Assembly: GCA_964517625.1 (NCBI GenBank)
Contig: CAZFBW010000004.1
Location: forward strand, 1-63,819
Length of the DNA: 63,819 nt
DNA from: an uncultured Candidatus Saccharibacteria bacterium
GTDB taxonomy: Bacteria; Patescibacteriota; Minisyncoccia; Phycocordibacterales; UBA5272
Direction: 5' to 3'
Positions within the stretch are counted from its first letter, which is position 1; each line of letters starts with the position of its first letter. Below are positions 1 through 9,807 of the stretch, piece by piece. The notes beneath the pieces are model-generated. The model ran no database searches. It was not told where the DNA came from and worked only from the letters and a program-made list of their open reading frames with translations. The position numbers and the translations under genes are program-made.

Positions 1-65
1 TAGTTAAATGGATATAACTGCGGAATTCTACGCCTTTATTCCAGGTTCGATTCCTGGCGAGGGCA
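1..65 (+). tRNA. tRNA, 5'-truncated by the window edge. Anticodon unresolved: loop ATTCTAC would give TCT/Arg, but the anticodon stem pairs poorly
   Basis: Canonical T arm CCAGG-TTCGATT-CCTGG (41-57), then acceptor strand CGAGGGC and discriminator A (58-65). D-loop-like TAGTTAAATGGATA at the start. No encoded CCA. Confidence 0.6.
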
Positions 66-68
66 CAT

Positions 69-111
69 AAAAATAAACCAGTCACCAAATTTTGGTGACT
101 GGTTTATTTTT
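69..111. terminator. Bidirectional rho-independent terminator hairpin after the tRNA
   Basis: Perfect 18-bp inverted repeat AAAAATAAACCAGTCACC / GGTGACTGGTTTATTTTT with an A/T loop. A-run on one side, T-run on the other. Confidence 0.8.
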
Positions 112-126
112 ACAGTGTTGTTCGAG

Positions 127-215
127 CCAGGAATCGAACCTTTGGTCCACATTTTTAATGACCAAAGAGAATATAAAAATGTAGGACTTCGACCGGAGGG
201 AGAAGCGATTCCTGG
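127..215. other. tRNA-linked structured element, copy 1 (three-helix fold; transcribed strand unknown)
   Basis: Closing stem CCAGGAATCG (127-136) / CGATTCCTGG (206-215). Inner 13-bp stem 145-157 / 174-187 with a single bulge and a 16-nt loop. Small hairpin CTTC..GAAG at 187-205. Positions 126-140 are antisense to the upstream tRNA T arm (44-58). Homologous to 7009-7102. Confidence 0.55.
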
Positions 216-231
216 TGTTGTTGAAAAAAAC

Positions 232-256
232 AAAATCCGCCACTTGGGCGGATTTT
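232..256. terminator. Bidirectional terminator hairpin
   Basis: AAAATCCGCC / GGCGGATTTT stem with loop ACTTG. Lies downstream of the minus-strand ORF ending at 273. Confidence 0.75.
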
Positions 257-272
257 GTTATTTTAAAATTTA

Positions 273-752
273 CTATTGATGTTCGTGGTGGTTATGATGT
301 TCTCCTCCATGGTGTTCGTGTGAAGCTCCACCGTGATAGTGCGACTTCACTTCAAACAAGATGTAAAGTTCAAGTGTTGTAAAGATAATAAGTCCAACAA
401 GGTTAAGCGACAACAAGCTTTGTACCGCACCTAAAAGTACTGAGTAAAATGTGTACATCCAACCTTTTTGTGTACGTGCCTTAAGTCCAGGAAAAGCAAG
501 CACAAGCAAAACAAGATTGGCGATTGCAAAAGCGCCCGCAAGCATCCACATTCCTCCGTACCCACCCATCATCACAACTGGCGCAGTCATAAGACCGATA
601 CCAAAAAGTGCAAAGATGGCAGGAACTGAGAAAACGATTCCGATAATTGCTAAATAAGGAGCTATCTTAACAATAATTTCGCGAATATCATTTGGAAGAT
701 GAGGCGCCTTCGCGAAAAAGTCCTCAAGCTTTTTTATTACATCGTGCATCAC
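273..752 (-). CDS. Small integral membrane protein with a His-rich C-terminal tail
   Basis: 159-aa ORF with about 4 hydrophobic helices. C-terminus is HYHGGASHEHHGGEHHNHHEHQ. A terminator follows immediately. Confidence 0.6.
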   Translation of the reverse strand: MMHDVIKKLEDFFAKAPHLPNDIREIIVKIAPYLAIIGIVFSVPAIFALFGIGLMTAPVVMMGGYGGMWMLAGAFAIANLVLLVLAFPGLKARTQKGWMYTFYSVLLGAVQSLLSLNLVGLIIFTTLELYILFEVKSHYHGGASHEHHGGEHHNHHEHQ

Positions 753-779
753 CCAAGTATACCACCCAAAGGAATATGT

Positions 780-1016
780 CTAGTGGTAAATAATCTTCTT
801 TATTTCTTCTAGTGTTTCCTCTTGATTTTTTTCGTATTTATCAAAAATACTAGGATCCTTCTTAACTAATTCACCAAAGGCCTTCGCGCGTGTCTCAAGA
901 TACTGATCAAAACTTTGACCCCCTAATGCTGCAAGGCGAACCTGCATTTCGTTTCTTATTCCTAACTCGTTTCTTTCAACTGGTTTGAAGTCTGGTTGTG
1001 ATTCAAGATTATTCAT
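780..1016 (-). CDS. Hypothetical small protein
   Basis: 78-aa ORF overlapping the upstream ORF by 8 nt (operon-like). No recognisable motif. Confidence 0.4.
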   Translation of the reverse strand: MNNLESQPDFKPVERNELGIRNEMQVRLAALGGQSFDQYLETRAKAFGELVKKDPSIFDKYEKNQEETLEEIKKIIYH

Positions 1017-1245
1017 ACTTTATTTCCCTTTTAAGTCTGTCTTCTAATTTTCTTCCAAGAATTCTTCGTGCGTCCCCTTCTCCGCAAATTACCACCTCCT
1101 CTTTTTCATCAACATGCGGAACAACAATGTCCACAATTTCACCGACAACTTCCGTTAGTTTTTCTTCAATCAACTTCTTTCCAATTGGAATTGTCTCATT
1201 ATCAAAAATCGTGTAGTCCTCGTAAATACAAACATGGTGTGTCAT
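1009..1245 (-). CDS. Hypothetical small acidic protein
   Basis: 78-aa ORF tightly packed between neighbouring genes. No recognisable motif. Confidence 0.4.
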   Translation of the reverse strand: MTHHVCIYEDYTIFDNETIPIGKKLIEEKLTEVVGEIVDIVVPHVDEKEEVVICGEGDARRILGRKLEDRLKREIKYE

Positions 1246-1254
1246 GGCTTTAGT

Positions 1255-1635
1255 TTAGCGCAAGCGAGTTCCGTTTGTAAGCGTCTTTGTGGGATTAAGA
1301 AGAGCAAGTCCAGAATCATCGCTTCCAGCTAAAATCATTCCATTTGATTCCAAGCCCCGAATCATACGCGGTGCCAAGTTTGCAACAAACGGAAACTGCT
1401 TACCGAGCAAATCTTCTGGTTGCATGTATTCACGAATACCAGAAAGAATTTGTCGTGGGCTCGCTTCTCCTAAATCAACAGAGAGCTTGTAAAGCTTGTC
1501 CGCGCCTTCTACTACTTCAACTGAAAGCACGGTACCGAGACGAATTTCCAATTTCTGAAAATCGTCTATCGTTGCATACACTTTTTCTGGCACTTCTTCT
1601 GTTTTCTTTTCTGGAATTATGTTTTCTTCTTGCAT
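1255..1635 (-). CDS. tRNA-binding domain protein (Trbp111/CsaA/EMAP-II-like OB fold)
   Basis: Motifs F.KLEIRLGTV..VE.V.GADKLYKLSVDLG...RQI.SGI and NL.PR...G..S.GM.L are typical of the MetRS C-terminal / CsaA tRNA-binding domain. Confidence 0.75.
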   Translation of the reverse strand: MQEENIIPEKKTEEVPEKVYATIDDFQKLEIRLGTVLSVEVVEGADKLYKLSVDLGEASPRQILSGIREYMQPEDLLGKQFPFVANLAPRMIRGLESNGMILAGSDDSGLALLNPTKTLTNGTRLR

Positions 1636-1644
1636 TGTATTTCC

Positions 1645-1684
1645 TTTTTGCTTATTGCTTATTGCTTTTTACTAATTGCTATTC
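1645..1684. repeat. Copy of a dispersed AT-rich intergenic repeat family (core TTGCTTTTTACTAATTGCT)
   Basis: The 19-nt string TTGCTTTTTACTAATTGCT at 1662-1680 is identical to 5506-5524. Related copies lie at 5111-5136 (complement), 6461-6485 (complement) and 6525-6550. Confidence 0.7.
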
Positions 1685-1687
1685 TTC

Positions 1688-2155
1688 CTACCAATTATCA
1701 TTACTTGTTTCTTCTTCCGCACCACCTTCTTCATCATCACCCAAATCTTCTTCATCAGAAACAACTGGTCCATTTACCTTATCCAAATATCGCTGAAGCA
1801 CAATAGCTGCTGCTTGGTCGTCTACCTCGTGATTCCCCTCTTTCCCAGGTTGCTTGCGTGCCTCAACTGTTGAATACCACTCTTTTTCAAAAACAATTTT
1901 CACATCCATTGCGTTTTCGATTTTTGCACCAAAAGCTCTCGCCTCTTTTGCAATTGCATTTGGCTTTCCGTTACCATCAACACTTTCTCCAATCACCACG
2001 GTACCGATTTTCATTTCACGAATAAGTTCAAGCGTATCTTTAAAAAGTGTTTGGTCGTTAGGTGCAATCATTAAAGGAAACGCAATAGAACCATCATCGT
2101 CTGATTGTGCAAAACCAACCTTTTTAGAGCCGTAATCGATACCTAAATATTTCAT
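1688..2155 (-). CDS. ruvX: Holliday-junction resolvase-like / pre-16S rRNA nuclease YqgF (RuvX) with an acidic C-terminal tail
   Basis: Starts MKYLGIDYGSKKVGFA, the YqgF signature. Start moved to the internal ATG at 2155 because the longer ORF would overlap the upstream gene. Tail is DEEDLGDDEEGGAEEE. Confidence 0.8.
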   Translation of the reverse strand: MKYLGIDYGSKKVGFAQSDDDGSIAFPLMIAPNDQTLFKDTLELIREMKIGTVVIGESVDGNGKPNAIAKEARAFGAKIENAMDVKIVFEKEWYSTVEARKQPGKEGNHEVDDQAAAIVLQRYLDKVNGPVVSDEEDLGDDEEGGAEEETSNDNW

Positions 2156-2180
2156 ACAAAAAAGTATATCAAATTGAGAG

Positions 2181-2435
2181 TCATTTTCCCCACCTCCATC
2201 TCGGCTTTTCTCCAGTAAGGTAGCAAATAACCATGAAAAACAATGTAAGCCCAACAAAACATAGGATATTACCTATCAAGATATTGCTTCCGGACTGAAC
2301 TTTTTTATCTATATCGTTAAAAATTCCAAATAGTGTAACCACATAGACAGCAGTCAGTGCCCAACCCTCCCACGTCACGGGCACCCAACCCCAGCCGTAC
2401 AATTTTGCTTTAAACCACAATTTTTTATTCTCCAT
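2181..2435 (-). CDS. Small membrane protein (YGWGW motif family)
   Basis: Starts MENKKLWFKAKLYGWGWVPVTWEGW, followed by two hydrophobic helices. Confidence 0.55.
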   Translation of the reverse strand: MENKKLWFKAKLYGWGWVPVTWEGWALTAVYVVTLFGIFNDIDKKVQSGSNILIGNILCFVGLTLFFMVICYLTGEKPRWRWGK

Positions 2436-2465
2436 CCACCAAGTATACCAACTACACACAAAACC

Positions 2466-2494
2466 TTGAATCTATCAATATTTCGTGGTATAGT
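2466..2494 (+). promoter_or_regulatory. Sigma70-type promoter for the tRNA-Ser/tRNA-Arg unit
   Basis: TTGAAT-N17-TATAGT, about 30 nt upstream of tRNA-Ser. Confidence 0.6.
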
Positions 2495-2527
2495 ATTGCG
2501 ACCATTCTGATAGTTTAGTTATAGCGC

Positions 2528-2614
2528 GGAGGAGTGGCAGAGTGGTCGATTGCACCTGTCTTGAAAACAGGAGTCTGGGCAACCGGACCGTGAGTTCGAA
2601 TCTCACCTCCTCCG
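2528..2614 (+). tRNA. tRNA-Ser(TGA), type II with a long variable arm
   Basis: Acceptor GGAGGAG / CTCCTCC. Anticodon arm CCTGT-CTTGAAA-ACAGG. T arm GTGAG-TTCGAAT-CTCAC. No encoded CCA. Confidence 0.9.
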
Positions 2615-2638
2615 CGCTGAAACGAAATTTTCGGCTAC

Positions 2639-2710
2639 GCTCTCGTAGTTCAATGGATAGAATTCAAGTTTGCGGTACTTGCGATGCAGGTTCGATTCCT
2701 GCCGAGAGCA
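2639..2710 (+). tRNA. tRNA-Arg(GCG)
   Basis: Acceptor GCTCTCG / CGAGAGC. Anticodon arm CAAGT-TTGCGGT-ACTTG. T arm GCAGG-TTCGATT-CCTGC. No encoded CCA. Confidence 0.85.
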
Positions 2711-2713
2711 CTT

Positions 2714-2755
2714 GATAACAAAATGACCACCCTCGCGGTGGTTGTTTTGTTATCA
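2714..2755. terminator. Long A/T-armed terminator hairpin after tRNA-Arg
   Basis: GATAACAAAATGACCACC / GGTGGTTGTTTTGTTATC, an imperfect 18-bp stem. Same design as 69-111 and 6964-7000. Confidence 0.7.
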
Positions 2756-2756
2756 C

Positions 2757-2873
2757 AGTATTCGGCGGATGAGAACCGAAGGCGACCAAATTTGCAGGAG
2801 AGCGAAGCGATTCGTTGCAAATTGGAAGTGCCGAATATTGTACTCGATATTCGGAGTCGATTCCTGCCGAGAT
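2757..2873. other. tRNA-linked structured element, divergent copy 3
   Basis: Carries a 16-nt direct copy of the tRNA-Arg 3' end (TCGATTCCTGCCGAGA at 2857-2872, matching 2692-2707). Has a degenerate antisense T-arm-like segment (2764-2779). Core CGACCAAA...GGAGAGCGAAGCGATTC resembles copies 1 and 2; GAAGCGATTC at 2804-2813 is identical to 202-211. Internal hairpins at 2786-2825 and 2831-2854. Confidence 0.4.
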
Positions 2874-2915
2874 ATTTTCCAAAATTAAACCGCCCTCTCG
2901 GGCGATTTAATTTAT

Positions 2916-3185
2916 CTACTTCTTCCCCACCTTCGCAAGCGCTTTCGCAAGTCTTGCTTTCTTTCGGTTCGCAGTTCCTTTCTTGATAACTCCCTTCTTT
3001 GCGGCTTTATCGAGTGCTTTGAACGCAAGCGCAATATCCTTTGTTGCCCCTTTTACATCTTTCTTAGCAACTTCATCACGAACGGTTTTAACCTGTTCAC
3101 GCATTGTACGGCGAAGCTTGTCATTAACAACACGCTTTGCTGTACTGCCACGAAGTGCTCTTTTTGCTGATTTGGTAATTGCCAT
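2916..3185 (-). CDS. rpsT: 30S ribosomal protein S20
   Basis: Starts MAITKSAKRALRGS and is basic and helical throughout. Start set at the internal ATG (3185). Confidence 0.9.
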   Translation of the reverse strand: MAITKSAKRALRGSTAKRVVNDKLRRTMREQVKTVRDEVAKKDVKGATKDIALAFKALDKAAKKGVIKKGTANRKKARLAKALAKVGKK

Positions 3186-3261
3186 AATTTTTATATAAGT
3201 CACACAACTTTACCACAAAACACTGAAAAATGGAAGGGTTTGTTCATGCTATACTTTTTCT

Positions 3262-3825
3262 ATGATTGGGTATCTTTCTGGAGAAGTTCATAAGGTCACT
3301 GAAAAGGATATGATTATCCTCATTTCTGGTGTCGGCTACAAAGTTCTCTCTCCCCTTCCAACCCTTCTTGCACAGACTGTTGGCAAACCTGTTTCCCTCT
3401 TCATCCATACCCACGTCCGCGAAGACGCCCTTACCTTATTTGGATTCGAGAAAGAGATTGAACTTGAACTCTTTAATCGCCTCACATCTGTTTCTGGTAT
3501 TGGTCCAAAGAGTGCGCTTGCCATGCTTTCTGTTCATTCACCTGCGTCGATTGCAGATGCGGTTGAACGAGGCGACGCATCACTTCTCTCACACACCCCA
3601 GGGATAGGAAAGAAAACGGCAGAAAAAATTATTATTGAACTTAAGGGAAAGCTCGCACACATGCAAAACACTCAAGGCGCAAGCGATGCTTTGTTTGATG
3701 TTCGTCTCGCACTTGAAGCGCTTGGGTATTCTTCACGAGAAATACATGATGCTGTCGCAGATTTAAACACAAAAAACAAAACAACCAACACCCTTATCAA
3801 AGAGGCGCTCTCTGCGCTACAATAA
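3262..3825 (+). CDS. ruvA: Holliday junction branch-migration complex subunit RuvA
   Basis: MIGYLSGEV start, HhH motifs (L.SVSGIGPKSA, GIGKKTAEKII) and a C-terminal domain III. Confidence 0.9.
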   Translation: MIGYLSGEVHKVTEKDMIILISGVGYKVLSPLPTLLAQTVGKPVSLFIHTHVREDALTLFGFEKEIELELFNRLTSVSGIGPKSALAMLSVHSPASIADAVERGDASLLSHTPGIGKKTAEKIIIELKGKLAHMQNTQGASDALFDVRLALEALGYSSREIHDAVADLNTKNKTTNTLIKEALSALQ

Positions 3826-3829
3826 GCAC

Positions 3830-5125
3830 ATGGAAAAAATTCTCCGCACGGTAGAAAAATACATACCGAAAAAAATCTACAAGTTTTTTCAACCGGCCTA
3901 TCACTACCTACTTTCGGTCATCGGCGCCACCATCTACCGGGACCCTTCTAAAAAAATTTATGTTATTGGTGTCACTGGCACGAAAGGAAAGTCCTCCACG
4001 GTTGAATTCGTAAATGCTGTGCTTGAGGCCTCTGGAAAGAGGACTGCTGTGCTTTCCACCATTCATTTCAAAATCGGCGACAAAGATCGTCCAAACAAAT
4101 ACAAAATGACGATGCCGGGAAGATTTTTCACACAAAAGTTTCTACGCGACGCAGTAGATGCGGGCTGTACCCACGCAATTATTGAAATGACAAGTGAGGG
4201 TGCACGTTTCTTCCGCCACAACAGAGTACACATGGACGCACTCATTTTTACCAATCTCTCTCCTGAACACATTGAAAGTCACGGTTCGTTTGAAAAATAC
4301 AAACAAGCAAAACTCGCCTTGATTAAACAGCTTGCAAAAAGCGAAAAAGAAAATCGTTTATCAATTGCAAACTTGGATAATGAGCACGGTGTCAGTTTTC
4401 TTATTTACGACGTGGAAAAAAGCATTGGCTACTCACTCAAAGATATCGAGATTCTTTCTTCCGACGAACACAAAAGTAGAATCAAGTGGAATGGCATGGA
4501 ATTAAACATTCCCCTTCCTGGAAAATTTAATATTTCAAACGCCCTCGCCTCACTAACCCTTGCAAAAGAACTCGACATCTCAAACGAAGACATAGAGAAG
4601 GGAATTGAATCGCTTTCAAAAATCCGCGGACGTGTTGAGCGAGTGGAAGTTGGCCAAGATTTTTCCGTGATTGTCGACTATGCCCACACCGATGACTCAC
4701 TCCGCAAACTCTACGAAACATTTGAACCAGCAGATTCACGTCTTGGACGTAAAATAAAACTGATTGCAGTGCTTGGCTCAACTGGTGGTGGTCGTGATGC
4801 TTGGAAGCGCCCTGTGCTTGGAGAAATTGCGGACGAATACTGTGATGAAATTATCGTCACCAATGAAGACCCATACGATGAAGACCCAATGAAAATTATT
4901 AACGAGGTTGCAAGCGGTGTGAAAGCACACACGCCAACTATTATTCTTAACCGACGTGAAGCAATACGTCATGCAATTCTCCTTGCCAAAAAAAATGACG
5001 TTGTTTTAATTTCTGGAAAAGGTACAGACCCATACATTATGGGACCACACGGAACAAAAGAGTCTTGGGACGATGCAACGGTTGCAAGAGAAGAACTAAC
5101 GAAGTTAGTAGCAAAAAGCAATTAG
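3830..5125 (+). CDS. murE: Mur ligase, MurE-like (UDP-MurNAc-L-Ala-D-Glu : diamino acid ligase), short form
   Basis: P-loop VTGTKGKSST, DYAHTDDSL (the MurE DYAHTPD-like motif), and a C-terminal TNEDPYDEDP motif. The last codons and stop lie inside repeat 5111-5136. Confidence 0.75.
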   Translation: MEKILRTVEKYIPKKIYKFFQPAYHYLLSVIGATIYRDPSKKIYVIGVTGTKGKSSTVEFVNAVLEASGKRTAVLSTIHFKIGDKDRPNKYKMTMPGRFFTQKFLRDAVDAGCTHAIIEMTSEGARFFRHNRVHMDALIFTNLSPEHIESHGSFEKYKQAKLALIKQLAKSEKENRLSIANLDNEHGVSFLIYDVEKSIGYSLKDIEILSSDEHKSRIKWNGMELNIPLPGKFNISNALASLTLAKELDISNEDIEKGIESLSKIRGRVERVEVGQDFSVIVDYAHTDDSLRKLYETFEPADSRLGRKIKLIAVLGSTGGGRDAWKRPVLGEIADEYCDEIIVTNEDPYDEDPMKIINEVASGVKAHTPTIILNRREAIRHAILLAKKNDVVLISGKGTDPYIMGPHGTKESWDDATVAREELTKLVAKSN

Positions 5126-5136
5126 CAAAAAGCAAA
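5111..5136. repeat. Left arm of the 26-bp inverted repeat bracketing the four-helix-bundle gene
   Basis: The reverse complement of GCAAAAAGCAATTAGCAAAAAGCAAA matches 5505-5530 at 25 of 26 positions. Confidence 0.85.
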
Positions 5137-5499
5137 ATGGGAAACATTAAACACTTTACAGATCTTATTGTTTGGCAAGAAGGACATAAACTTGTTCTTT
5201 CTGTCTACCAAATCACTAAGAAACTGCCTGATACCGAAAGGTTTGGACTTGTCAGTCAAGCGCAACGAGCGTCTGTTTCAATAACATCTAACATAGCAGA
5301 AGGGTTTGGAAGAAAAGGAGAAAAAGAAAAAATACAATTCTACTATATCGCGCATGGATCTCTTACCGAATTGGAAAACTTACTTTTTGTAATGAAAGAT
5401 CTTGGTTTTATAGAAGGCAAGCTATATGATAGTGTAAAAAGTACCATGCAAAATGTAAATAATTTACTACTTGGTCTAATTAAAAGCATCAAAGACTAA
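5137..5499 (+). CDS. Four-helix-bundle protein (23S rRNA intervening-sequence protein family)
   Basis: F.DL.VWQ..H.L....Y.....P..E...L.SQ..RA..SI..NIAEG.GR......QF...A.GSL.E is the family signature. Start at the ATG at 5137. Confidence 0.85.
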   Translation: MGNIKHFTDLIVWQEGHKLVLSVYQITKKLPDTERFGLVSQAQRASVSITSNIAEGFGRKGEKEKIQFYYIAHGSLTELENLLFVMKDLGFIEGKLYDSVKSTMQNVNNLLLGLIKSIKD

Positions 5500-5504
5500 C
5501 CCTC

Positions 5505-5530
5505 TTTGCTTTTTACTAATTGCTTTTTGC
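5505..5530. repeat. Right arm of the 26-bp inverted repeat
   Basis: TTTGCTTTTTACTAATTGCTTTTTGC. Pairs with 5111-5136. Confidence 0.85.
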
Positions 5531-5539
5531 TAGAATTTT

Positions 5540-6460
5540 ATGCCAGAACTCCCAGAGGTTCATACCACTGTTACAGGGTTACAAAAAGTTCTCCCCGGAC
5601 TTTCCTTTACTTCAATCTGGTCAGATATGTGGAGCACATCAAAACTTGCTCGCAACACCATTAAAGATAAAAGTTATTTTTCATATTTCAAAAAATACTC
5701 CCTCAATCAAAAGATTCTTCATGTTCGCCGTCGCGCAAAACACATTCTCATTGATTTAGAAAATGGGTTTACGGTCATTATGCACATGAAAATGACCGGA
5801 CACATTATGTACGGAACGTACAAGCAAAACAAAAAATACAACGGCCGTGAATGGAGTTGGGTGCCAACCGATAAAAACCCCGCACTTCGCGACCCTTACA
5901 ATCGTCACATTCGTGTTATGTTCACACTTTCAAATGGAAAACATTTGGCGTTCTGTGATTCAAGAAAATTCGGCACCATTGTTGTTGAAAAAACAGACAC
6001 CCTTCATACAGAACGCCTCGCTCATCTAGGCCCTGAACCACTTGAAAAAAGTTTTACCCTTACTTTGTTTAAACAAAGACTTCTCAAGTCTCCCACACGT
6101 GCAATCAAAACAGTGCTTATGGACCAAACAATCGTTGCGGGTATTGGAAACATTTACTCAGATGAGATGCTCTATCTAGCACACATCCTTCCAACACGAA
6201 CATCGAAAAGTTTAAAAGAGGTCGAATGGAATCTTTTATTTTCTTCAATGAAAAAAGTTTTATCGAAGGGAATTGATTTCGGTGGTGATTCAACAAGTGA
6301 TTATAGAAACATTAAGGGTGAACGTGGGAAATTTCATCACAACCACAATGTGTATTTACGAACAAAAGAAAAGTGTTTAGCGCGTGGCTGTAAAGGTAGT
6401 ATTCAGAAAAAAACAATTGGGGGGAGGAGTGCGCATTTTTGTCCAAAGTGCCAAAAATAA
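5540..6460 (+). CDS. mutM: Formamidopyrimidine-DNA glycosylase (Fpg/MutM), long form
   Basis: N-terminal MPELPEV, an H2TH region (L.DQ...AGIGNIY.DE.L) and a C-terminal zinc finger C..C...C.KCQK. Confidence 0.9.
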   Translation: MPELPEVHTTVTGLQKVLPGLSFTSIWSDMWSTSKLARNTIKDKSYFSYFKKYSLNQKILHVRRRAKHILIDLENGFTVIMHMKMTGHIMYGTYKQNKKYNGREWSWVPTDKNPALRDPYNRHIRVMFTLSNGKHLAFCDSRKFGTIVVEKTDTLHTERLAHLGPEPLEKSFTLTLFKQRLLKSPTRAIKTVLMDQTIVAGIGNIYSDEMLYLAHILPTRTSKSLKEVEWNLLFSSMKKVLSKGIDFGGDSTSDYRNIKGERGKFHHNHNVYLRTKEKCLARGCKGSIQKKTIGGRSAHFCPKCQK

Positions 6461-6550
6461 GCAACTAGCAATAAGTAAAAAGCAAGGGGGAAAGCCCGTG
6501 CAAGCTTTGCTTGCACGGGCTCCTATTTACTAATTGCTTATTGCTATTTG
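6461..6550. repeat. Nested palindromic intergenic element: AT-rich arms of the local repeat family around a GC-rich 13-bp hairpin. Probable terminator
   Basis: Core hairpin AGCCCGTGCAAGC / GCTTGCACGGGCT (6493-6521). Outer arms GCAACTAGCAATAAG (6461-6475) versus CTTATTGCTATTTGC (6536-6550). Confidence 0.7.
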
Positions 6551-6563
6551 CTATACTGTGTTC

Positions 6564-6725
6564 ATGGGACTTTTCTTGAAAATTTTTATTGGTTTCTGGA
6601 TTATATGGATTATTTGGTATGTCACCGGCGGACCTCTTCGTGATGACAAAACAAAGCCATATGTCGGACCAAACCCAGAAACGCTTCAACTCGAAGAGTT
6701 TGGGCCTGAATCACTTCCTCGCTAG
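6564..6725 (+). CDS. Hypothetical small membrane protein
   Basis: MGLFLKIFIGFWIIWIIWYV is one hydrophobic helix. Short ORF, start uncertain. Confidence 0.35.
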   Translation: MGLFLKIFIGFWIIWIIWYVTGGPLRDDKTKPYVGPNPETLQLEEFGPESLPR

Positions 6726-6770
6726 ACAACTGGAAATTTTATTGTTTTTTTGCTAGGATATATCCACTCT

Positions 6771-6840
6771 GTCCCCTGTAGCTCGAGAAGCTTGGCTTCG
6801 AGATGTCGTAAGCTAGCAAGCGTCGACGCCAGTCGGTAGA
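6771..6840 (+). other. tRNA-Lys 5'-half-like sequence interrupted by a 46-nt palindrome-rich insert
   Basis: GTCCCCTGTAGCTC[46 nt]AGTCGGTAGA compared with the genuine tRNA-Lys 5' end GTCCCTATAGCTCAGTCGGTAGA at 6887. The insert contains CTCGAG, AAGCTT, GCTAGC, GTCGAC and the 10-nt palindrome GCGTCGACGC. Confidence 0.5.
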
Positions 6841-6886
6841 TATATTAAAACGTGCACACAGTGAGTGGGTGGTAAAATAAACACAT

Positions 6887-6959
6887 GTCCCTATAGCTCA
6901 GTCGGTAGAGCAGCTGCCTTTTAAGCAGACGGTCGAAGGTTCGATCCCTTCTGGGGGCA
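6887..6959 (+). tRNA. tRNA-Lys(TTT)
   Basis: Acceptor GTCCCTA / TGGGGGC (two G-U pairs), D loop AGCTCAGTCGGTAGAGC, anticodon loop CTTTTAA, T arm GAAGG-TTCGATC-CCTTC. No encoded CCA. Confidence 0.9.
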
Positions 6960-6963
6960 CTTG

Positions 6964-7000
6964 AAAAGAAAAATATCCCTTTGTGGGATATTTTTCTTTT
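6964..7000. terminator. Bidirectional terminator hairpin after tRNA-Lys
   Basis: Perfect 16-bp stem AAAAGAAAAATATCCC / GGGATATTTTTCTTTT with loop TTTGT. Confidence 0.8.
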
Positions 7001-7008
7001 TACCGTAT

Positions 7009-7102
7009 CCAGAAGGGATCGAACCTTGGCGCCTATTTTTAAGGAACGAAGTGACTATAAAAATAGTGCGTCTCGACCAAAGGGAGAGGCGGTCCCTTCT
7101 GG
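7009..7102. other. tRNA-linked structured element, copy 2
   Basis: Closing stem CCAGAAGGGA (7009-7018) / TCCCTTCTGG (7093-7102). Inner stem 7030-7041 / 7058-7070 has a bulge at the same position and a 16-nt loop, as in copy 1. Hairpin TCTC..GAGA at 7071-7087. Positions 7009-7027 are a 19-nt perfect antisense of the tRNA-Lys T arm/acceptor (6936-6954). Confidence 0.55.
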
Positions 7103-7129
7103 TCCCCAAATCGTGCTAACATTAAAAAC

Positions 7130-7675
7130 ATGAAACCCCATAGGCCATACACTCTAGAAGAATACAATCCACAATGGAAAGAAACTTTTAAAGAAGTCTC
7201 GAGTAGAGTAAAAAATATTTTAGGAGATATAGCTCTTGAAATAGAACATATTGGTAGCACTTCAATTGAGGGGATGGTTGCAAAACCACAAATAGATATT
7301 TTGGTTGTTGTAAAAGATTTAGATTTAGTCAAAACCAAACACCAAGAAATGGTTACTGCGGGTTTTGCTCATCACGGCAGAGGATACGTCAACGAAGATG
7401 ATGATTACTTTAGTTTAGACACACCTGAAGGGGTGAGGGTTGCGAGTGTTCATATCTTACAAAATGGAAATCCGAAGATATCCCACTACAAAATATTTAG
7501 AGATTATTTAAAAGAGCATCCTGAAGAAAGAGATTTATATATTAAAGCAAAAAAAGATTTGTACTCAAAACATAGCGATAACTACGGTGATTATAATAGT
7601 AATAAAAGTGATGTGGTTCTTGCTATTAAAGAAAGGGCTGTAAATTGGTTTAATAAACAAGAGACAAATAAATAG
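7130..7675 (+). CDS. GrpB family protein (nucleotidyltransferase-fold, UPF0157)
   Basis: Y...W...F......I...L......IEHIGSTS..G..AKP.IDI.V.V....... and H.H........F.DYL..HP.....Y...K are the GrpB pattern. Confidence 0.75.
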   Translation: MKPHRPYTLEEYNPQWKETFKEVSSRVKNILGDIALEIEHIGSTSIEGMVAKPQIDILVVVKDLDLVKTKHQEMVTAGFAHHGRGYVNEDDDYFSLDTPEGVRVASVHILQNGNPKISHYKIFRDYLKEHPEERDLYIKAKKDLYSKHSDNYGDYNSNKSDVVLAIKERAVNWFNKQETNK

Positions 7676-7692
7676 GTTTATTTTTATCCTAA

Positions 7693-7737
7693 CTAGACCT
7701 CCAAAACAATCTCCTCCAACGTATCTTTCAAACTTGA
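7693..7737 (-). pseudogene. Relic 3' end (last 14 codons plus stop) of a paralogue of the gene at 9893-10525
   Basis: The minus strand reads SSLKDTLEEIVLEV-stop, versus GNLKDRLEEIILEV-stop at the end of ORF 9893-10525. Nucleotide identity is 35/39 (7697-7735 versus 9897-9935), with the stop codon at the equivalent position. Confidence 0.6.
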
Positions 7738-7743
7738 AAACAA

Positions 7744-7765
7744 AAAGCGACCGAATGGTCGCTTT
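7744..7765 (-). terminator. Terminator of the prolyl oligopeptidase gene
   Basis: AAAGCGACC / GGTCGCTTT stem with loop GAAT and a T-run on the minus strand. Confidence 0.7.
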
Positions 7766-7770
7766 GAAAT

Positions 7771-9807
7771 TTAATGAACTACACCCAACTGTTCGAAAAT
7801 GAAACTCCACACATCAGCAAGCTTCTTTACCGTCTTGGAGACGGCGTTTGCTCCACCGTGTCCAGCACCCAGTTCAACACGAAGAAGAATCGGATTATCT
7901 GATACGTTCGCCTGTTTGAGACGAGCAGTCATTTTATACGAATGCATCGGATGCACTCGATCATCACTGTCTGCTGTAACAATGAAGACAGCTGGGTATT
8001 TCTCTCCGTCTCGCACGTTGTGATACGGGCTATAACGAAGTAGATACTCCATCATTTCCTCATCGTCTGGATTTCCATAATCCGGAATCCAGTGAGCTCC
8101 TCCGAAGAAGAGATGAAACCTAAGCATGTCCGTCACCGGCACGTCAGCAATCGCCACCTTAACCAGGTTCGGGTGCTGTGTGATTGTCGCCATAGTGAGA
8201 AGTCCGCCATTGCTTCCTCCCCAAACGGCAACTTTGTTGCTATTTGTATACCCGGTAGCAATCAAGTGTTCAACTGCTGAAGCAAAATCATCAAACACAT
8301 TCTGTTTATTCTTCTGCATACCCGCTTCGTGCCACGCCTGGCCAAACTCGCCACCACCTCGAATATTTGCAATCGCATAGACACCACCTTGTTTCAGAAA
8401 AGGAATTACTCCTCTTAAGAAGTATGGCGTAATGCTTATGTCGAAACCTCCATATCCGTAAAGAACGGTTGGATTATTTCCATCTAGTGTGATGTCTTTA
8501 CGGTGTACAAGAAACATTGGAATCTTCGTGCCATCCTTCGACGAATACCAGACCTGCTTCGTCTCCAAATCCTCCACGGAACTCAAACTTCCCTCTTTGG
8601 CAAAAACAGAAGTGTTTCCTGTTGAGAGGTCAAGTCGACACGCCATGAACGGGTACGTAAACGATTCGAATGAAAAGAACAACTCCTTCCCTTCGTCTTC
8701 GCACCGAAGTGCTTCAACATAACCAAGGGTTGGCAGAGGTACCTCACGAAGGAAGGTGCCATCCAGATCATACTGTTTAATAACAGAGGACACGTTTTCA
8801 AGATAGCTGGCGAAAATATTATCTCCAACACAGACTACTTGCTCCAACATGTTCTCCGTCTCAGGAAGAATAAATTCTGTACTGACACCACCTTGCAAAA
8901 TATCCTTGATGTCCATGCGCACCAGACGCCACCGAGGTGCATCCTCATTTGTCCTGATGTATAGTTTGTCTCGGTGAATAAAACCAAAACAACTTGCACC
9001 AAGCTTTGTAGAGACCGCAAGGACAAATCCTTCTTCGTTGTCAGAAAGGTCCTTCAGATACACCGTTGACTGTTCCCTGCCAAGTAATTCGTCCTGACTT
9101 TCAACGTTGACAAGCACGTAGCGACCGCTGGCATCAGCAATAACCCACGGCCAATCTTCTTTCTGCAAAGACCCCCCGAAAACAAGCTCGTCCTGTGCAG
9201 GGTCACTACCAATTGTGTGGTAAAACACACGACGGTACAGTTTAGATTCAGGGCTTCCTTCCTCTGCAACAACGTATGGATCTCGCCTGATATACCAGAA
9301 CCCGCTTGCATCCGCAGACCATGCACACAGGTGCGGATAGGAGTCATCCAGAATCACATCGGGCAAATCGGTCGCGGTTGCAACATCCATGACCCGAATT
9401 TCGCTCTTGTCGTTTCCTTTTCTTGAAATCTCGTACATGAGCAGTTTACCGTCAGGAGACGCCAACCACCCGCCAAGCGTCGTTGTTTTGTCCACTGAGA
9501 GCGTGTTCGAATCAACGAGAACTCTTGCCTTCCCCGTAAGTCCTTCTTGAACGAACAACTTACCAAGCTCTTCTCCTGCTTCCTTTTTTCTGAAGAAGTA
9601 GTTTGACCCACGCGGTTCCGGCACTCCGAATTCATCAGTCCCGAAAAAAGTTTCGAAACGAGTTTTTAACTCGTCGCGCCACACACATTTCTTGAGATGT
9701 GTTTCGGTTTCATTGGCTTGTTCTTGAAGCCATGCCTGCACTTCTGGCTGAGCGTTTTTTTCGAAATGGCGGAAAGAGTCTAGCACCACGGTTTCTCCGT
9801 TGTTCAT
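7771..9807 (-). CDS. Prolyl oligopeptidase family serine peptidase (S9A)
   Basis: 678 aa with an N-terminal beta-propeller region and a C-terminal alpha/beta hydrolase. Nucleophile motif GGSNGGLL, then DDRV and GHGG. Confidence 0.85.
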   Translation of the reverse strand: MNNGETVVLDSFRHFEKNAQPEVQAWLQEQANETETHLKKCVWRDELKTRFETFFGTDEFGVPEPRGSNYFFRKKEAGEELGKLFVQEGLTGKARVLVDSNTLSVDKTTTLGGWLASPDGKLLMYEISRKGNDKSEIRVMDVATATDLPDVILDDSYPHLCAWSADASGFWYIRRDPYVVAEEGSPESKLYRRVFYHTIGSDPAQDELVFGGSLQKEDWPWVIADASGRYVLVNVESQDELLGREQSTVYLKDLSDNEEGFVLAVSTKLGASCFGFIHRDKLYIRTNEDAPRWRLVRMDIKDILQGGVSTEFILPETENMLEQVVCVGDNIFASYLENVSSVIKQYDLDGTFLREVPLPTLGYVEALRCEDEGKELFFSFESFTYPFMACRLDLSTGNTSVFAKEGSLSSVEDLETKQVWYSSKDGTKIPMFLVHRKDITLDGNNPTVLYGYGGFDISITPYFLRGVIPFLKQGGVYAIANIRGGGEFGQAWHEAGMQKNKQNVFDDFASAVEHLIATGYTNSNKVAVWGGSNGGLLTMATITQHPNLVKVAIADVPVTDMLRFHLFFGGAHWIPDYGNPDDEEMMEYLLRYSPYHNVRDGEKYPAVFIVTADSDDRVHPMHSYKMTARLKQANVSDNPILLRVELGAGHGGANAVSKTVKKLADVWSFIFEQLGVVH

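Follow-up and report, generated by a model that had tools for sequence, protein, structure and literature searches.

How can one conserved piece of DNA without a gene of its own lie behind several different transfer RNA (tRNA) genes and be closed, at each of them, by a stem that reproduces the sequence of that particular tRNA? The question is raised by positions 7009 to 7102 of a 63,819-nt stretch of contig CAZFBW010000004.1 from an uncultured Candidatus Saccharibacteria bacterium, called the window here, from whose first letter all coordinates are counted. The element found there stands behind tRNA-Lys and is one of three copies in the window, the others lying behind tRNA-Arg(UCU) (copy 1) and tRNA-Arg(GCG) (copy 3); it is numbered copy 2, and the family to which it belongs is called family A. 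A sequence-only reading had described a conserved structured core behind tRNA genes whose closing arms follow the neighboring tRNA, and this description now extends to about 40 independent copies behind 11 tRNA species. The explanation favored here, which we consider probable although far from secure, is that family A is an insertion element, non-coding and non-autonomous, with the T-loop of tRNA genes as its target, and that it acts as a folded single strand.

Architecture and Distribution of the Element

The target gene of copy 2, tRNA-Lys(UUU), occupies 6887–6959 on the + strand (ARAGORN; 65.6 bits with the Rfam tRNA model), and its part from the T-loop onward is the source of both arms of the element. 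Between the two lies a spacer palindrome (6964–7000, assigned to no strand) with 16-bp arms, a 5-nt loop, an A-tract and a T-tract, which looks like a bidirectional terminator. The 5′ arm (7009–7027, +) is a perfect 19-nt inverted copy of tRNA-Lys 6936–6954, exactly as the sequence-only reading had it, and covers the T-stem, the T-loop and the start of the acceptor 3′ strand; positions 7009–7021 form the 5′ strand of the closing stem, P1. Then follow, on the + strand, the CC-loop-GG mini-hairpin J1, placed by alignment (7024–7029; the CC/GG is invariant in 29 of 29 aligned sequences, with a loop of 2 to 5 nt); the long A/T-rich hairpin P2 (7030–7070), assigned by pairing and by covariation in the alignment, with a bulged A, tandem G·A pairs and a small distal stem ending in a GAA triloop; and P3 (7071–7089), a 4-bp stem with tandem G·A, CC/GG and an NNA triloop, which directly abuts the 3′ arm with no spacer. 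The 3′ arm itself (7090–7102, +), the 3′ strand of P1, repeats the tRNA directly from C56 in decayed form, over 13 nt and with one change (CGGTCCCTTCTGG versus CGATCCCTTCTGG), and is followed at 7103–7135 (+) by the native 3′ flank of tRNA-Lys, displaced by the insertion according to its alignment with empty sites.

Pattern scans were directed at a collection of species-representative genomes and, separately, at metagenome contigs; together with two copies from the window, these two scans yielded 57 copies with 44 distinct cores, in line with the expectation that the element should recur elsewhere. The named host genomes all belong to the Candidate Phyla Radiation (CPR)/Patescibacteria, namely Saccharibacteria, Paceibacterota and Nomurabacteria. 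Nearly all of the 57 inserts measure 110–160 bp and are devoid of open reading frames (ORFs). That every copy should sit behind a tRNA gene proved true for 49 of the 57, which lie 18–103 nt downstream of a tRNA on the same strand, and not for the other eight, which are found at contig ends, as second units of tandem arrays, or with no tRNA in the available sequence. The occupied genes are those for Arg (UCU, GCG, CCG, CCU), Lys (UUU, CUU), Val, Ile(GAU), Asn and Gly(CCC), mostly Arg and Lys, and occupancy tracks the T-loop: of the tRNAs with GGTTCGAT[TC]C, 32 have an element and four have none, and those with other T-loops are mostly empty. The window conforms to this pattern, with three of its four tRNA genes occupied and only tRNA-Ser, which has a different T-loop, free. 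A conserved anti-T-arm sequence of the GGAATCGAACC type is present in every family member. In a search of positions 1–8000 of the window with Rfam cmscan (E ≤ 10), nothing credible fell on the elements, overlaps with microRNA and leader models being far below the gathering thresholds, so that no Rfam match to the core emerged; literature searches for the motif sequences and for the concept returned nothing relevant. The family is widespread in CPR and undescribed in Rfam and in the searchable literature.

The Closing Arms as Copies of the Target

When each tRNA 3′ end was lined up with both arms of its element, the 3′ arm proved to be a direct repeat of the tRNA that always begins at C56 (GGTT|CGATTCC...), the left junction falling invariably after the GGTT of the T-loop, and that runs through the T-stem, the acceptor strand and the discriminator into 0–14 nt of non-tRNA flank. 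Overall, the repeat spans 12–33 nt, with the left end fixed and the right end variable; exact repeats of 19–33 nt occur in many loci (33 nt in L107, 24 in L073, 23 in L078, 22 in L024, 21 in L008), and the outer part has decayed in other copies, including copies 1 and 2. The absence of CCA from the repeat indicates gene DNA or an unprocessed precursor as the template, and the repeat may be read as a tRNA end carried by the element or, equally, as a duplication. The 5′ arm is an inverted copy four bases longer, reaching G52. For 16 of the 17 loci with a spacer palindrome, the distance from G52 to the palindrome center recurs on the far side with a deviation of at most 5 nt, which suggests that the entire stretch between T-arm and spacer center forms, or once formed, a single long inverted duplication. 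At L068 and at the L024 copy behind tRNA-Arg(GCG), the two arms agree with each other where they differ from the tRNA, and the only sequence common to the arms of all copies is the inner GGAATCG/CGATTCC, that is, T-loop sequence.

The closing arms are, therefore, copies of the insertion target, and neither termini of the element nor a helix designed for a function. This removes the ground on which a transposon, or a miniature inverted-repeat transposable element (MITE), had been dismissed earlier, namely that such an element would keep the same termini in every copy; the argument fails because it took the arms for termini, and the empty sites and displaced flank described below show insertion. 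The cores cluster by lineage and not by tRNA: those of L008 (Arg-UCU), L049 and L110 (both Val-GAC) and L108 (Arg-GCG) are 92–95% identical, another sub-family of cores stands behind Lys, Arg-GCG and Asn, L024 holds two copies with identical cores and different arms, and L076 (Ile) and L090 (Arg) have spacer, 5′ arm and core in common, their repeats being local.

Empty and Occupied Sites in Close Relatives

Relatives of the window genome were fetched by means of the neighboring Fpg protein (77–86% identical), and the tRNA-Lys gene is identical in the window and in L112–L118. Three of these relatives (L112, L113 and L116, with Fpg 79–82% identical) lack the element, and their tRNA-Lys is directly followed by C[CA]AAACGTGCTAGCACGAG. 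The flank of the relatives, C[CA]AAACGTGCTAGCA, recurs in the window behind the 3′ arm, and the segment made up of 3′ arm and flank is collinear in alignment with tRNA end and flank at the empty sites; the flank alone is identical at 23 of 29 positions, a score reached by one in 5000 shuffles. Since the native flank is displaced behind the 3′ arm and the site is empty in relatives, the element is an insertion, and the spacer palindrome at 6964–7000, being missing from the empty sites, belongs to the inserted DNA.

The remaining relatives carry other occupants. At tRNA-Lys, L117 has a terminator only, and in L114, L115 and L118 the site is taken by one or two units that are built on another core, that of family B, and arranged alike: a palindrome, an inverted acceptor strand, a small hairpin with a CTGC loop, an inverted T-arm, a core ending in GTGAC, and a tRNA copy from C56. 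At tRNA-Arg(GCG), L122 carries a young family A unit, whose 5′ arm matches at 22 of 22 and whose 3′ arm at 19 of 19 positions, then a family B unit, with a perfect copy of the tRNA end after each; remnants of both families are found there in L120, a decayed B unit in L121, and the copy-3 sub-type in the window. Family B also stands behind tRNA-Ser in L120, with arms that fit the different T-loop of that tRNA, and tandem or partial arrays occur in L019, L076, L011, L060 and L109.

Presence in one genome and absence in the next, tandem accretion, and a direct repeat of the tRNA 3′ end that starts in the T-loop also invite the view that the copies are scars of integrase-mediated islands or prophages, the core being a leftover arm of an attachment (att) site and the repeats attL and attR, as in cis-mobilizable elements (CIMEs) if mobilization occurred in trans. 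Such a direct repeat is the classical signature of integration at tRNA genes, known from P4-type integrases with the T-loop sublocation, and small cargo lies beside copies in L109 and L016. We nevertheless hold this view to be rather improbable: the insert is confined to 110–160 bp in nearly all 57 copies and contains no integrase remnant, the compensatory changes in its hairpins and its strand-specific wobble pairs are not expected of att arms, an inverted copy of the tRNA end is foreign to known att sites, and the scan of viral contigs gave zero matches to the element.

Several details of family B and of similar elements may be recorded here. Family B is carried by L114/L121, L115 and L118 (tRNA-Lys), L120 (tRNA-Ser) and L122 (tRNA-Arg(GCG)). 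A perfect palindrome with 33-bp arms is formed by the final 11 nt of the tRNA and the flank in L115 and L118, two genomes between which both arms of the palindrome show concerted changes. Elements with the layout and small hairpin of family B and with unrelated cores stand behind tRNA-Val in L012 and behind tRNA-Cys in L073.

Fold, Covariation and the Folding Strand

The inverted repeats of the window copies, 19 and 16 nt long, exceed the longest one found in 200 shuffles of the same stretch (11 nt). The outer stems comprise 10 bp in copy 1 (127–136 with 206–215) and 13 bp, including one T·G, in copy 2 (7009–7021 with 7090–7102), and the tRNA-sense strand folds into the proposed three-helix shape much better than shuffles do, with z scores of −5.1 and −3.9 as RNA and of −4.6 and −4.3 as DNA for the two copies. 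The core motifs said to be common to both copies, TCGACCNNAGGGAGA and ATTTTTA-16 nt-TAAAAAT, do each occur exactly twice in the window, at these two places. The helix statistics were derived from an alignment of 29 sequences, in which P2 is paired in 97% of the cells and shows changes on both sides in 11 of its 14 pairs; the compensatory changes noticed in the inner stem on the basis of two copies are thereby upheld. The covariation score of the whole structure is 0.296, versus 0.135 in shuffles and at most 0.09 in slid controls. For the small hairpin, contrasted earlier as CTTC/GAAG versus TCTC/GAGA, the register was wrong, and once it is corrected one true double change (U-A to C-G) and one C-G to U·G change are left. 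The pairs of P3 are in register throughout the alignment, with pair 75–91 being CG in 16 sequences, UG in eight and UA in five, and with another pair being UG in 28 of 29. Altogether P3 holds 36 G·T cells and no A·C cell, from which it follows that the tRNA-sense strand is the folding strand; the covariation of P2 is strand-neutral.

P2 and P3 have a common design, in which a stem is followed by tandem G·A, two G-C pairs and an R-N-A triloop, and which also appears in a module between tRNA and element in some lineages; it is a hairpin design stable in RNA and DNA alike. Both scans demanded TCGACCNNAGGGAGA and the P3 motif, so that the apparent invariance of these two may stem from the search patterns, as that of AGGGAGA does. 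P1 is the least constrained helix, with 72% of cells paired and only 5–7 bp in some copies with intact cores, among them L014 and L045, in which 5–6 bp are left.

The strand bias of P3 bears directly on the idea, raised by the sequence-only reading, of an independent tRNA-like small RNA, which would have to be encoded on the opposite strand as a small RNA or an unusual tRNA-like gene with a 3′ part resembling a T-arm and with termination at the spacer palindrome. That strand does carry GGTTCGAT and a tRNA-like 3′ end, a bidirectional terminator follows the element on it in 23 of 41 loci, and the covariation of P2 would suit it equally well. On the same strand, however, the wobble pairs of P3 become A·C mismatches (one pair is affected in eight, another in 28 of the 29 sequences), and the G·A pairs give way to tandem U·C/C·U; the RNA fold of copy 2 is no better than that of shuffles (z = −1.65); and 31 of 42 loci have no promoter-like site upstream, the positions in the other 11 being inconsistent. 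On the tRNA strand there is no room for an independent promoter. The earlier statement that the element is no canonical tRNA is confirmed, since the output of ARAGORN is limited to the flanking tRNAs and the Rfam tRNA model is silent on both strands, as is the transfer-messenger RNA (tmRNA) model on the opposite one. A gene on the opposite strand is, on this evidence, very improbable.

More specific candidates were examined as well. The opposite strand was rejected as a tRNA, a tRNA-Sec or allo-tRNA, a permuted or split tRNA, a tmRNA-like domain, a YrlA/Y-RNA-like RNA and a retron msr/msd, in view of the missing acceptor 5′ strand, the A·C mismatches in P3, and the absence of an adjacent reverse transcriptase and of a promoter. 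A box C/D-like or kink-turn guide for T-loop modification seems untenable from inspection of the sequence, where the tandem G·A stands without a 3-nt bulge and C/D boxes are absent. A sponge for Shine-Dalgarno or anti-Shine-Dalgarno sequences was discarded given that the AAGGAG of P2 is not conserved, and a simple tandem-inversion-duplication by snap-back of the T-arm predicts a junction (T-stem, inverted loop, no core) that does not match the observed one.

The hairpin motif of P3 (variable stem, loop GACCNNAGGGA) serves in addition as the building block of GTCATTTCGACCGNAGGGAGAAATC, a dispersed repeat abundant in metagenome-assembled genomes of Bacteroidota, Delta- and Betaproteobacteria, Ignavibacteria and Calditrichia, often as inverted pairs. 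Its loci are L003, L005, L013, L015, L017, L018, L021–L023, L025, L027–L032, L035–L037, L042–L044, L047, L050, L052, L055 and L057–L059, and 16 loci searched against Rfam gave no match for the repeat.

Terminators, Transcription and a Possible Host RNA

A terminator-like palindrome precedes the element in 23 of 41 loci and follows it in only five, and in 18 of the 41 no terminator separates tRNA and element. Copy 1 is flanked by terminators on both sides. What lies downstream varies, copy 1 facing a convergent gene, copy 2 being followed by grpB and others by tRNAs; in L087, a promoter of its own comes after the element. These facts speak against the attenuator-like arrangement suggested by the sequence-only reading, taken here to mean that mutually exclusive pairings between the tRNA (sense), the 5′ arm (antisense) and the 3′ arm (sense) would control read-through into a downstream gene. 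The tRNA 3′ part, the spacer and the 5′ arm can indeed form one hairpin (−36 kcal/mol as DNA, z = −10), with P1 as its alternative. The gene to be controlled, in contrast, is not conserved, the terminator usually precedes the antisense arm, and the acceptor part of the pairing is lost in old copies, so that attenuation is the least credible of the explanations weighed here.

A more serious competitor is a structured RNA of use to the host, made with the tRNA transcript as a 3′ trailer or by read-through and open to gain and loss, in which the closing helix would mimic the acceptor/T-arm minihelix for trimming in 3′ processing, or the anti-T-arm would pair with the tRNA. The strong structural covariation and the wobble pairs on the tRNA-sense strand fit such an RNA, as do sequence conservation at the level of tRNAs across CPR classes, the greater conservation of the core than of its surroundings in L011 and L016, the strong bias of occupancy to Arg and Lys tRNAs, and the fact that the 3′ arm of young copies follows the tRNA end through the discriminator into the first bases of the trailer; where no terminator intervenes, co-transcription would be possible. 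Set against this are the strong terminator-like hairpin before the element in more than half of the loci examined, the terminators boxing in copy 1 on both sides, the free decay of the minihelix part in old copies such as L014 and L045 with the core intact, the close relatives that have no element or an unrelated core at the same tRNA, and the missing Rfam family. We regard a host RNA as unlikely on balance, and the two readings are compatible, since a mobile element can be co-opted.

A Proposed Mechanism of Insertion

The favored reading of family A as a T-loop-targeted insertion element has to account for a unit of ~110–160 bp, spacer included, that consists of the spacer, often a terminator-like palindrome, an inverted tRNA copy from about G52 to the 3′ end, and a core of 62–75 nt (J1, P2, P3), and that is followed by the direct tRNA copy from exactly C56 and the native tRNA flank. 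The strand-specific hairpin core and the conserved anti-T-arm 11-mer suggest a folded single strand as the active form and homing by base pairing. The anti-T-arm sequence (GGAATCGAACC) at the 5′ edge of the core may serve as a guide that pairs with the T-arm GGTTCGATTCC, joining would occur at T55|C56, and the folded strand, a DNA or RNA intermediate, would be the substrate of an enzyme encoded elsewhere, for which a tyrosine recombinase (of the kind that handles folded strands at integron attC sites and in CTX phage), an HUH/IS200-type transposase and a reverse transcriptase are candidates. The two copies of the tRNA end could derive from target duplication or from a replacement 3′ end borne by the element, and template switching between nearby inverted repeats, a known mutational process, may then keep them alike. 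The local inverted arm might be local DNA copied at insertion or the product of later template switching, either of which would suffice. P1 would accordingly be a by-product of insertion, of which only the inner part survives in old copies like copy 2.

Taken one step further, these features might define a new class of mobile element, a tentative proposal that we would not expect to hold in all its parts: gene-less units of ~130 nt homing to tRNA genes by base pairing, with an anti-T-arm guide beside a conserved hairpin scaffold, copied in as a folded single-stranded DNA dumbbell or circle, or as RNA by target-primed reverse transcription in the manner of a bacterial SINE (short interspersed nuclear element), with duplication of the tRNA 3′ end in both orientations, and comprising at least two scaffold families (A and B) that use the same T55|C56 site across CPR. 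The finding is best filed as a variant of tRNA-targeted mobile DNA, and its mechanism could prove more novel than that.

Several observations weigh against an insertion element of this kind. Among the recurrent and nearby ORFs scanned around 53 loci there is no integrase, transposase or reverse transcriptase, and the genes that recur as neighbors have housekeeping functions and keep their synteny (RuvA, RuvX, Fpg, Mur ligase, PilM, L19 and similar), which leaves the enzyme purely hypothetical; nor did the element turn up in the viral contigs scanned. A cut-and-paste or fixed-stagger model explains neither the local inverted arm nor the variable right end (12–33 nt), and a tRNA end borne by the element offers no account of a single core lineage at work behind several tRNA species. 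Between the orthologous loci L011 and L016, three of 74 core positions differ, compared with ~12% or more in the upstream coding and intergenic DNA and a spacer that can no longer be aligned, a pattern that looks like purifying selection in place and is unexpected of a purely selfish relic; and across CPR classes the core sequences are conserved about as well as tRNAs.

To our knowledge, the elements known to land at tRNA genes are all kilobase-sized and bring their own integrase. The present one is very small, gene-less and widespread in streamlined CPR genomes, landing at a single T-loop position and leaving the tRNA intact. If a trans-acting enzyme reads scaffold and guide, this would amount to an unrecognized site-specific, possibly guide-directed DNA insertion system; if the core is a host RNA, it would be a new class of tRNA-linked RNA conserved like tRNA. 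In either case, it explains the recurrent pseudo-tRNA fragments, long palindromes and synteny breaks beside CPR tRNA genes, where it may also cause assembly artefacts, and it offers a ready marker of strain-level variation in these uncultivated organisms.

Comparison with Known Systems

Each of the closest models fails in at least one defining feature. P4-type integrative elements and CIMEs resemble family A in leaving the tRNA intact, in repeating its 3′ end directly from within the T-loop onward, in their presence and absence between relatives, and in tandem accretion at the regenerated site. An intact tRNA with a flanking direct repeat and an empty site in relatives are thus both found here, and the integrase expected in or next to the insert is absent; family A differs further in its non-coding insert of 110–160 bp, in the additional inverted copy of the tRNA end, and in the covarying, strand-specific hairpin core.

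Integron attC sites and the attP(+) hairpin of CTX phage, an integrative mobile element exploiting Xer (IMEX), are likewise imperfect hairpins with one active strand, a stem that reproduces the target-site duplex, a variable or branched center, and a tendency to form tandem arrays, and in family A it is P1 that closes the branched core. The anti-T-loop ATCGAAC and the tRNA GTTCGAT agree at six of seven positions with RYYYAAC/GTTRRRY, which we take to be the attC consensus. Unlike these systems, family A targets the tRNA T-loop and not attI or dif, and no IntI is found near its copies; R″/R′ core sites with a G|TT crossover beside intI and attI are lacking, the junction being TT|C (GGTT|CGAT) and the repeat 12–33 nt instead of 6–7 nt, and most units, in contrast to attC cassettes, carry no gene.

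The palindrome-associated transposable elements (PATEs) of IS200/IS605 type and the repetitive extragenic palindromes (REP) and their doublets (REPIN) are also small, non-coding, strand-specific units defined by hairpins and devoid of terminal inverted repeats, PATEs and REPINs being mobilized in trans. IS200/IS605 elements read their target by pairing at the hairpin foot, and the AACC next to P1 of family A could similarly read GGTT. Their derivatives, however, neither duplicate the target nor contain a copy of it; that target is a tetra- or pentanucleotide and not a structured gene end, and no TnpA or REP-associated tyrosine transposase (RAYT) is present among the nearby ORFs scanned. The constant left junction of family A behind GGTT would suit insertion of the PATE kind, 3′ of a fixed tetranucleotide and with no duplication, provided that the element brings its own tRNA end, and the repeat reads equally well as a duplication. 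With the tRNA-related SINEs of eukaryotes, which spread by target-primed reverse transcription, family A has in common a short non-coding length, a tRNA-derived part, a target duplication of variable length, a structured, RNA-like core with G·U pairs, and the dependence on an enzyme encoded elsewhere; it lacks an A-tail or CCA and a linked reverse transcriptase, its tRNA-like parts are copied from the target and not from an ancestor, and we know of nothing of the sort in bacteria. A MITE does not fit, as each copy has outer arms of its own, modeled on the local tRNA, and a repeat of 12–33 nt with a variable right end is no short target-site duplication of fixed length. Nor does an attenuator or T-box, given the varying downstream content and the terminator-like hairpin so often upstream of the element.

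Other Copies, Arrays and Neighboring DNA

Two further copies in the window complete the picture. Copy 1 lies behind tRNA-Arg(UCU) (1–65, +; 32 bits with the Rfam tRNA model), which is 5′-truncated by the start of the window; its spacer palindrome (68–112, no strand) forms a 20-pair stem, and the element itself (126–215, +) reaches 98.1 bits with model R1, against which copies 1 and 3 were scored. Its parts are the 5′ arm (126–141), P1 (127–136 with 206–215), J1 (139–145), P2 (146–186), P3 (187–205) and the 3′ arm (206–215, +; CGATTCCTGG, equal to the tRNA from C56). The antisense match claimed between 126–140 and 44–58 is exact and extends to 16 nt (126–141 to 43–58). Two pairs of the anticodon stem deviate from the standard in this truncated tRNA-Arg(UCU); orthologues of the gene at other CPR loci look canonical.

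The two copies first reported are both real, and a third, diverged one behind tRNA-Arg(GCG) (~2762–2872) had been missed. Its target gene occupies 2639–2710 (+; ARAGORN and the Rfam tRNA model), and the unit at 2712–2872 (+) is a diverged sub-type that matches R1 only weakly (13.5 bits, E = 0.16). It comprises a spacer palindrome (~2712–2756), a degenerate 5′ arm (~2762–2777), J1 with CCGAAGG (2776–2782), P2 (~2783–2830) with the same GAGCGAAGCGA tip, a different P3 hairpin (2831–2854), and a 3′ arm (2858–2872, +) that is a 15-nt exact repeat of the tRNA from C56 (2693–2707); TCGACCNNAGGGAGA is absent from it.

The 5′ side of tRNA-Lys shows changes of its own. At 6771–6843, ~45 nt upstream of the real gene, its 5′ part, comprising the acceptor 5′ strand and the D-arm, recurs as a pseudo-copy that is interrupted in the D-loop by a hairpin-rich insert of ~50 nt; it is also found upstream of tRNA-Lys in L113 and is missing in L112, L114 and L116, so that this side of the gene, too, is a polymorphic insertion spot.

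DNA other than further units may accompany the copies. In L109 (1–1100), two family A copies 795 nt apart flank a 121-aa ORF without a Pfam match, and the spacer and the final 5 nt of tRNA-Asn recur in the second unit, an arrangement suggesting that small cargo can be lodged between units. In L016 (3170–4400), 1.17 kb with two 139-aa ORFs stands between the element and the conserved flank before tRNA-Val, and the matching place in L011 (2914–3054) holds a partial second element; given this difference in content, the DNA just behind the 3′ arm is a variable spot. L073 (2329–2630, minus strand) has a decayed second copy adjoining a pseudo tRNA-Lys 3′ end, with the same spacer hairpin as the intact copy and a flipped loop (TTTTGC versus GCAAAA), as recombination between the arms of the palindrome predicts. 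Finally, L119 (30–7421) presents a mirror-image duplication of the block S20-RuvA-Mur ligase-IVP-Fpg, centered where relatives carry tRNA-Arg(GCG) and elements, which reflects either assembly snap-back at long palindromes or a real inverted duplication.

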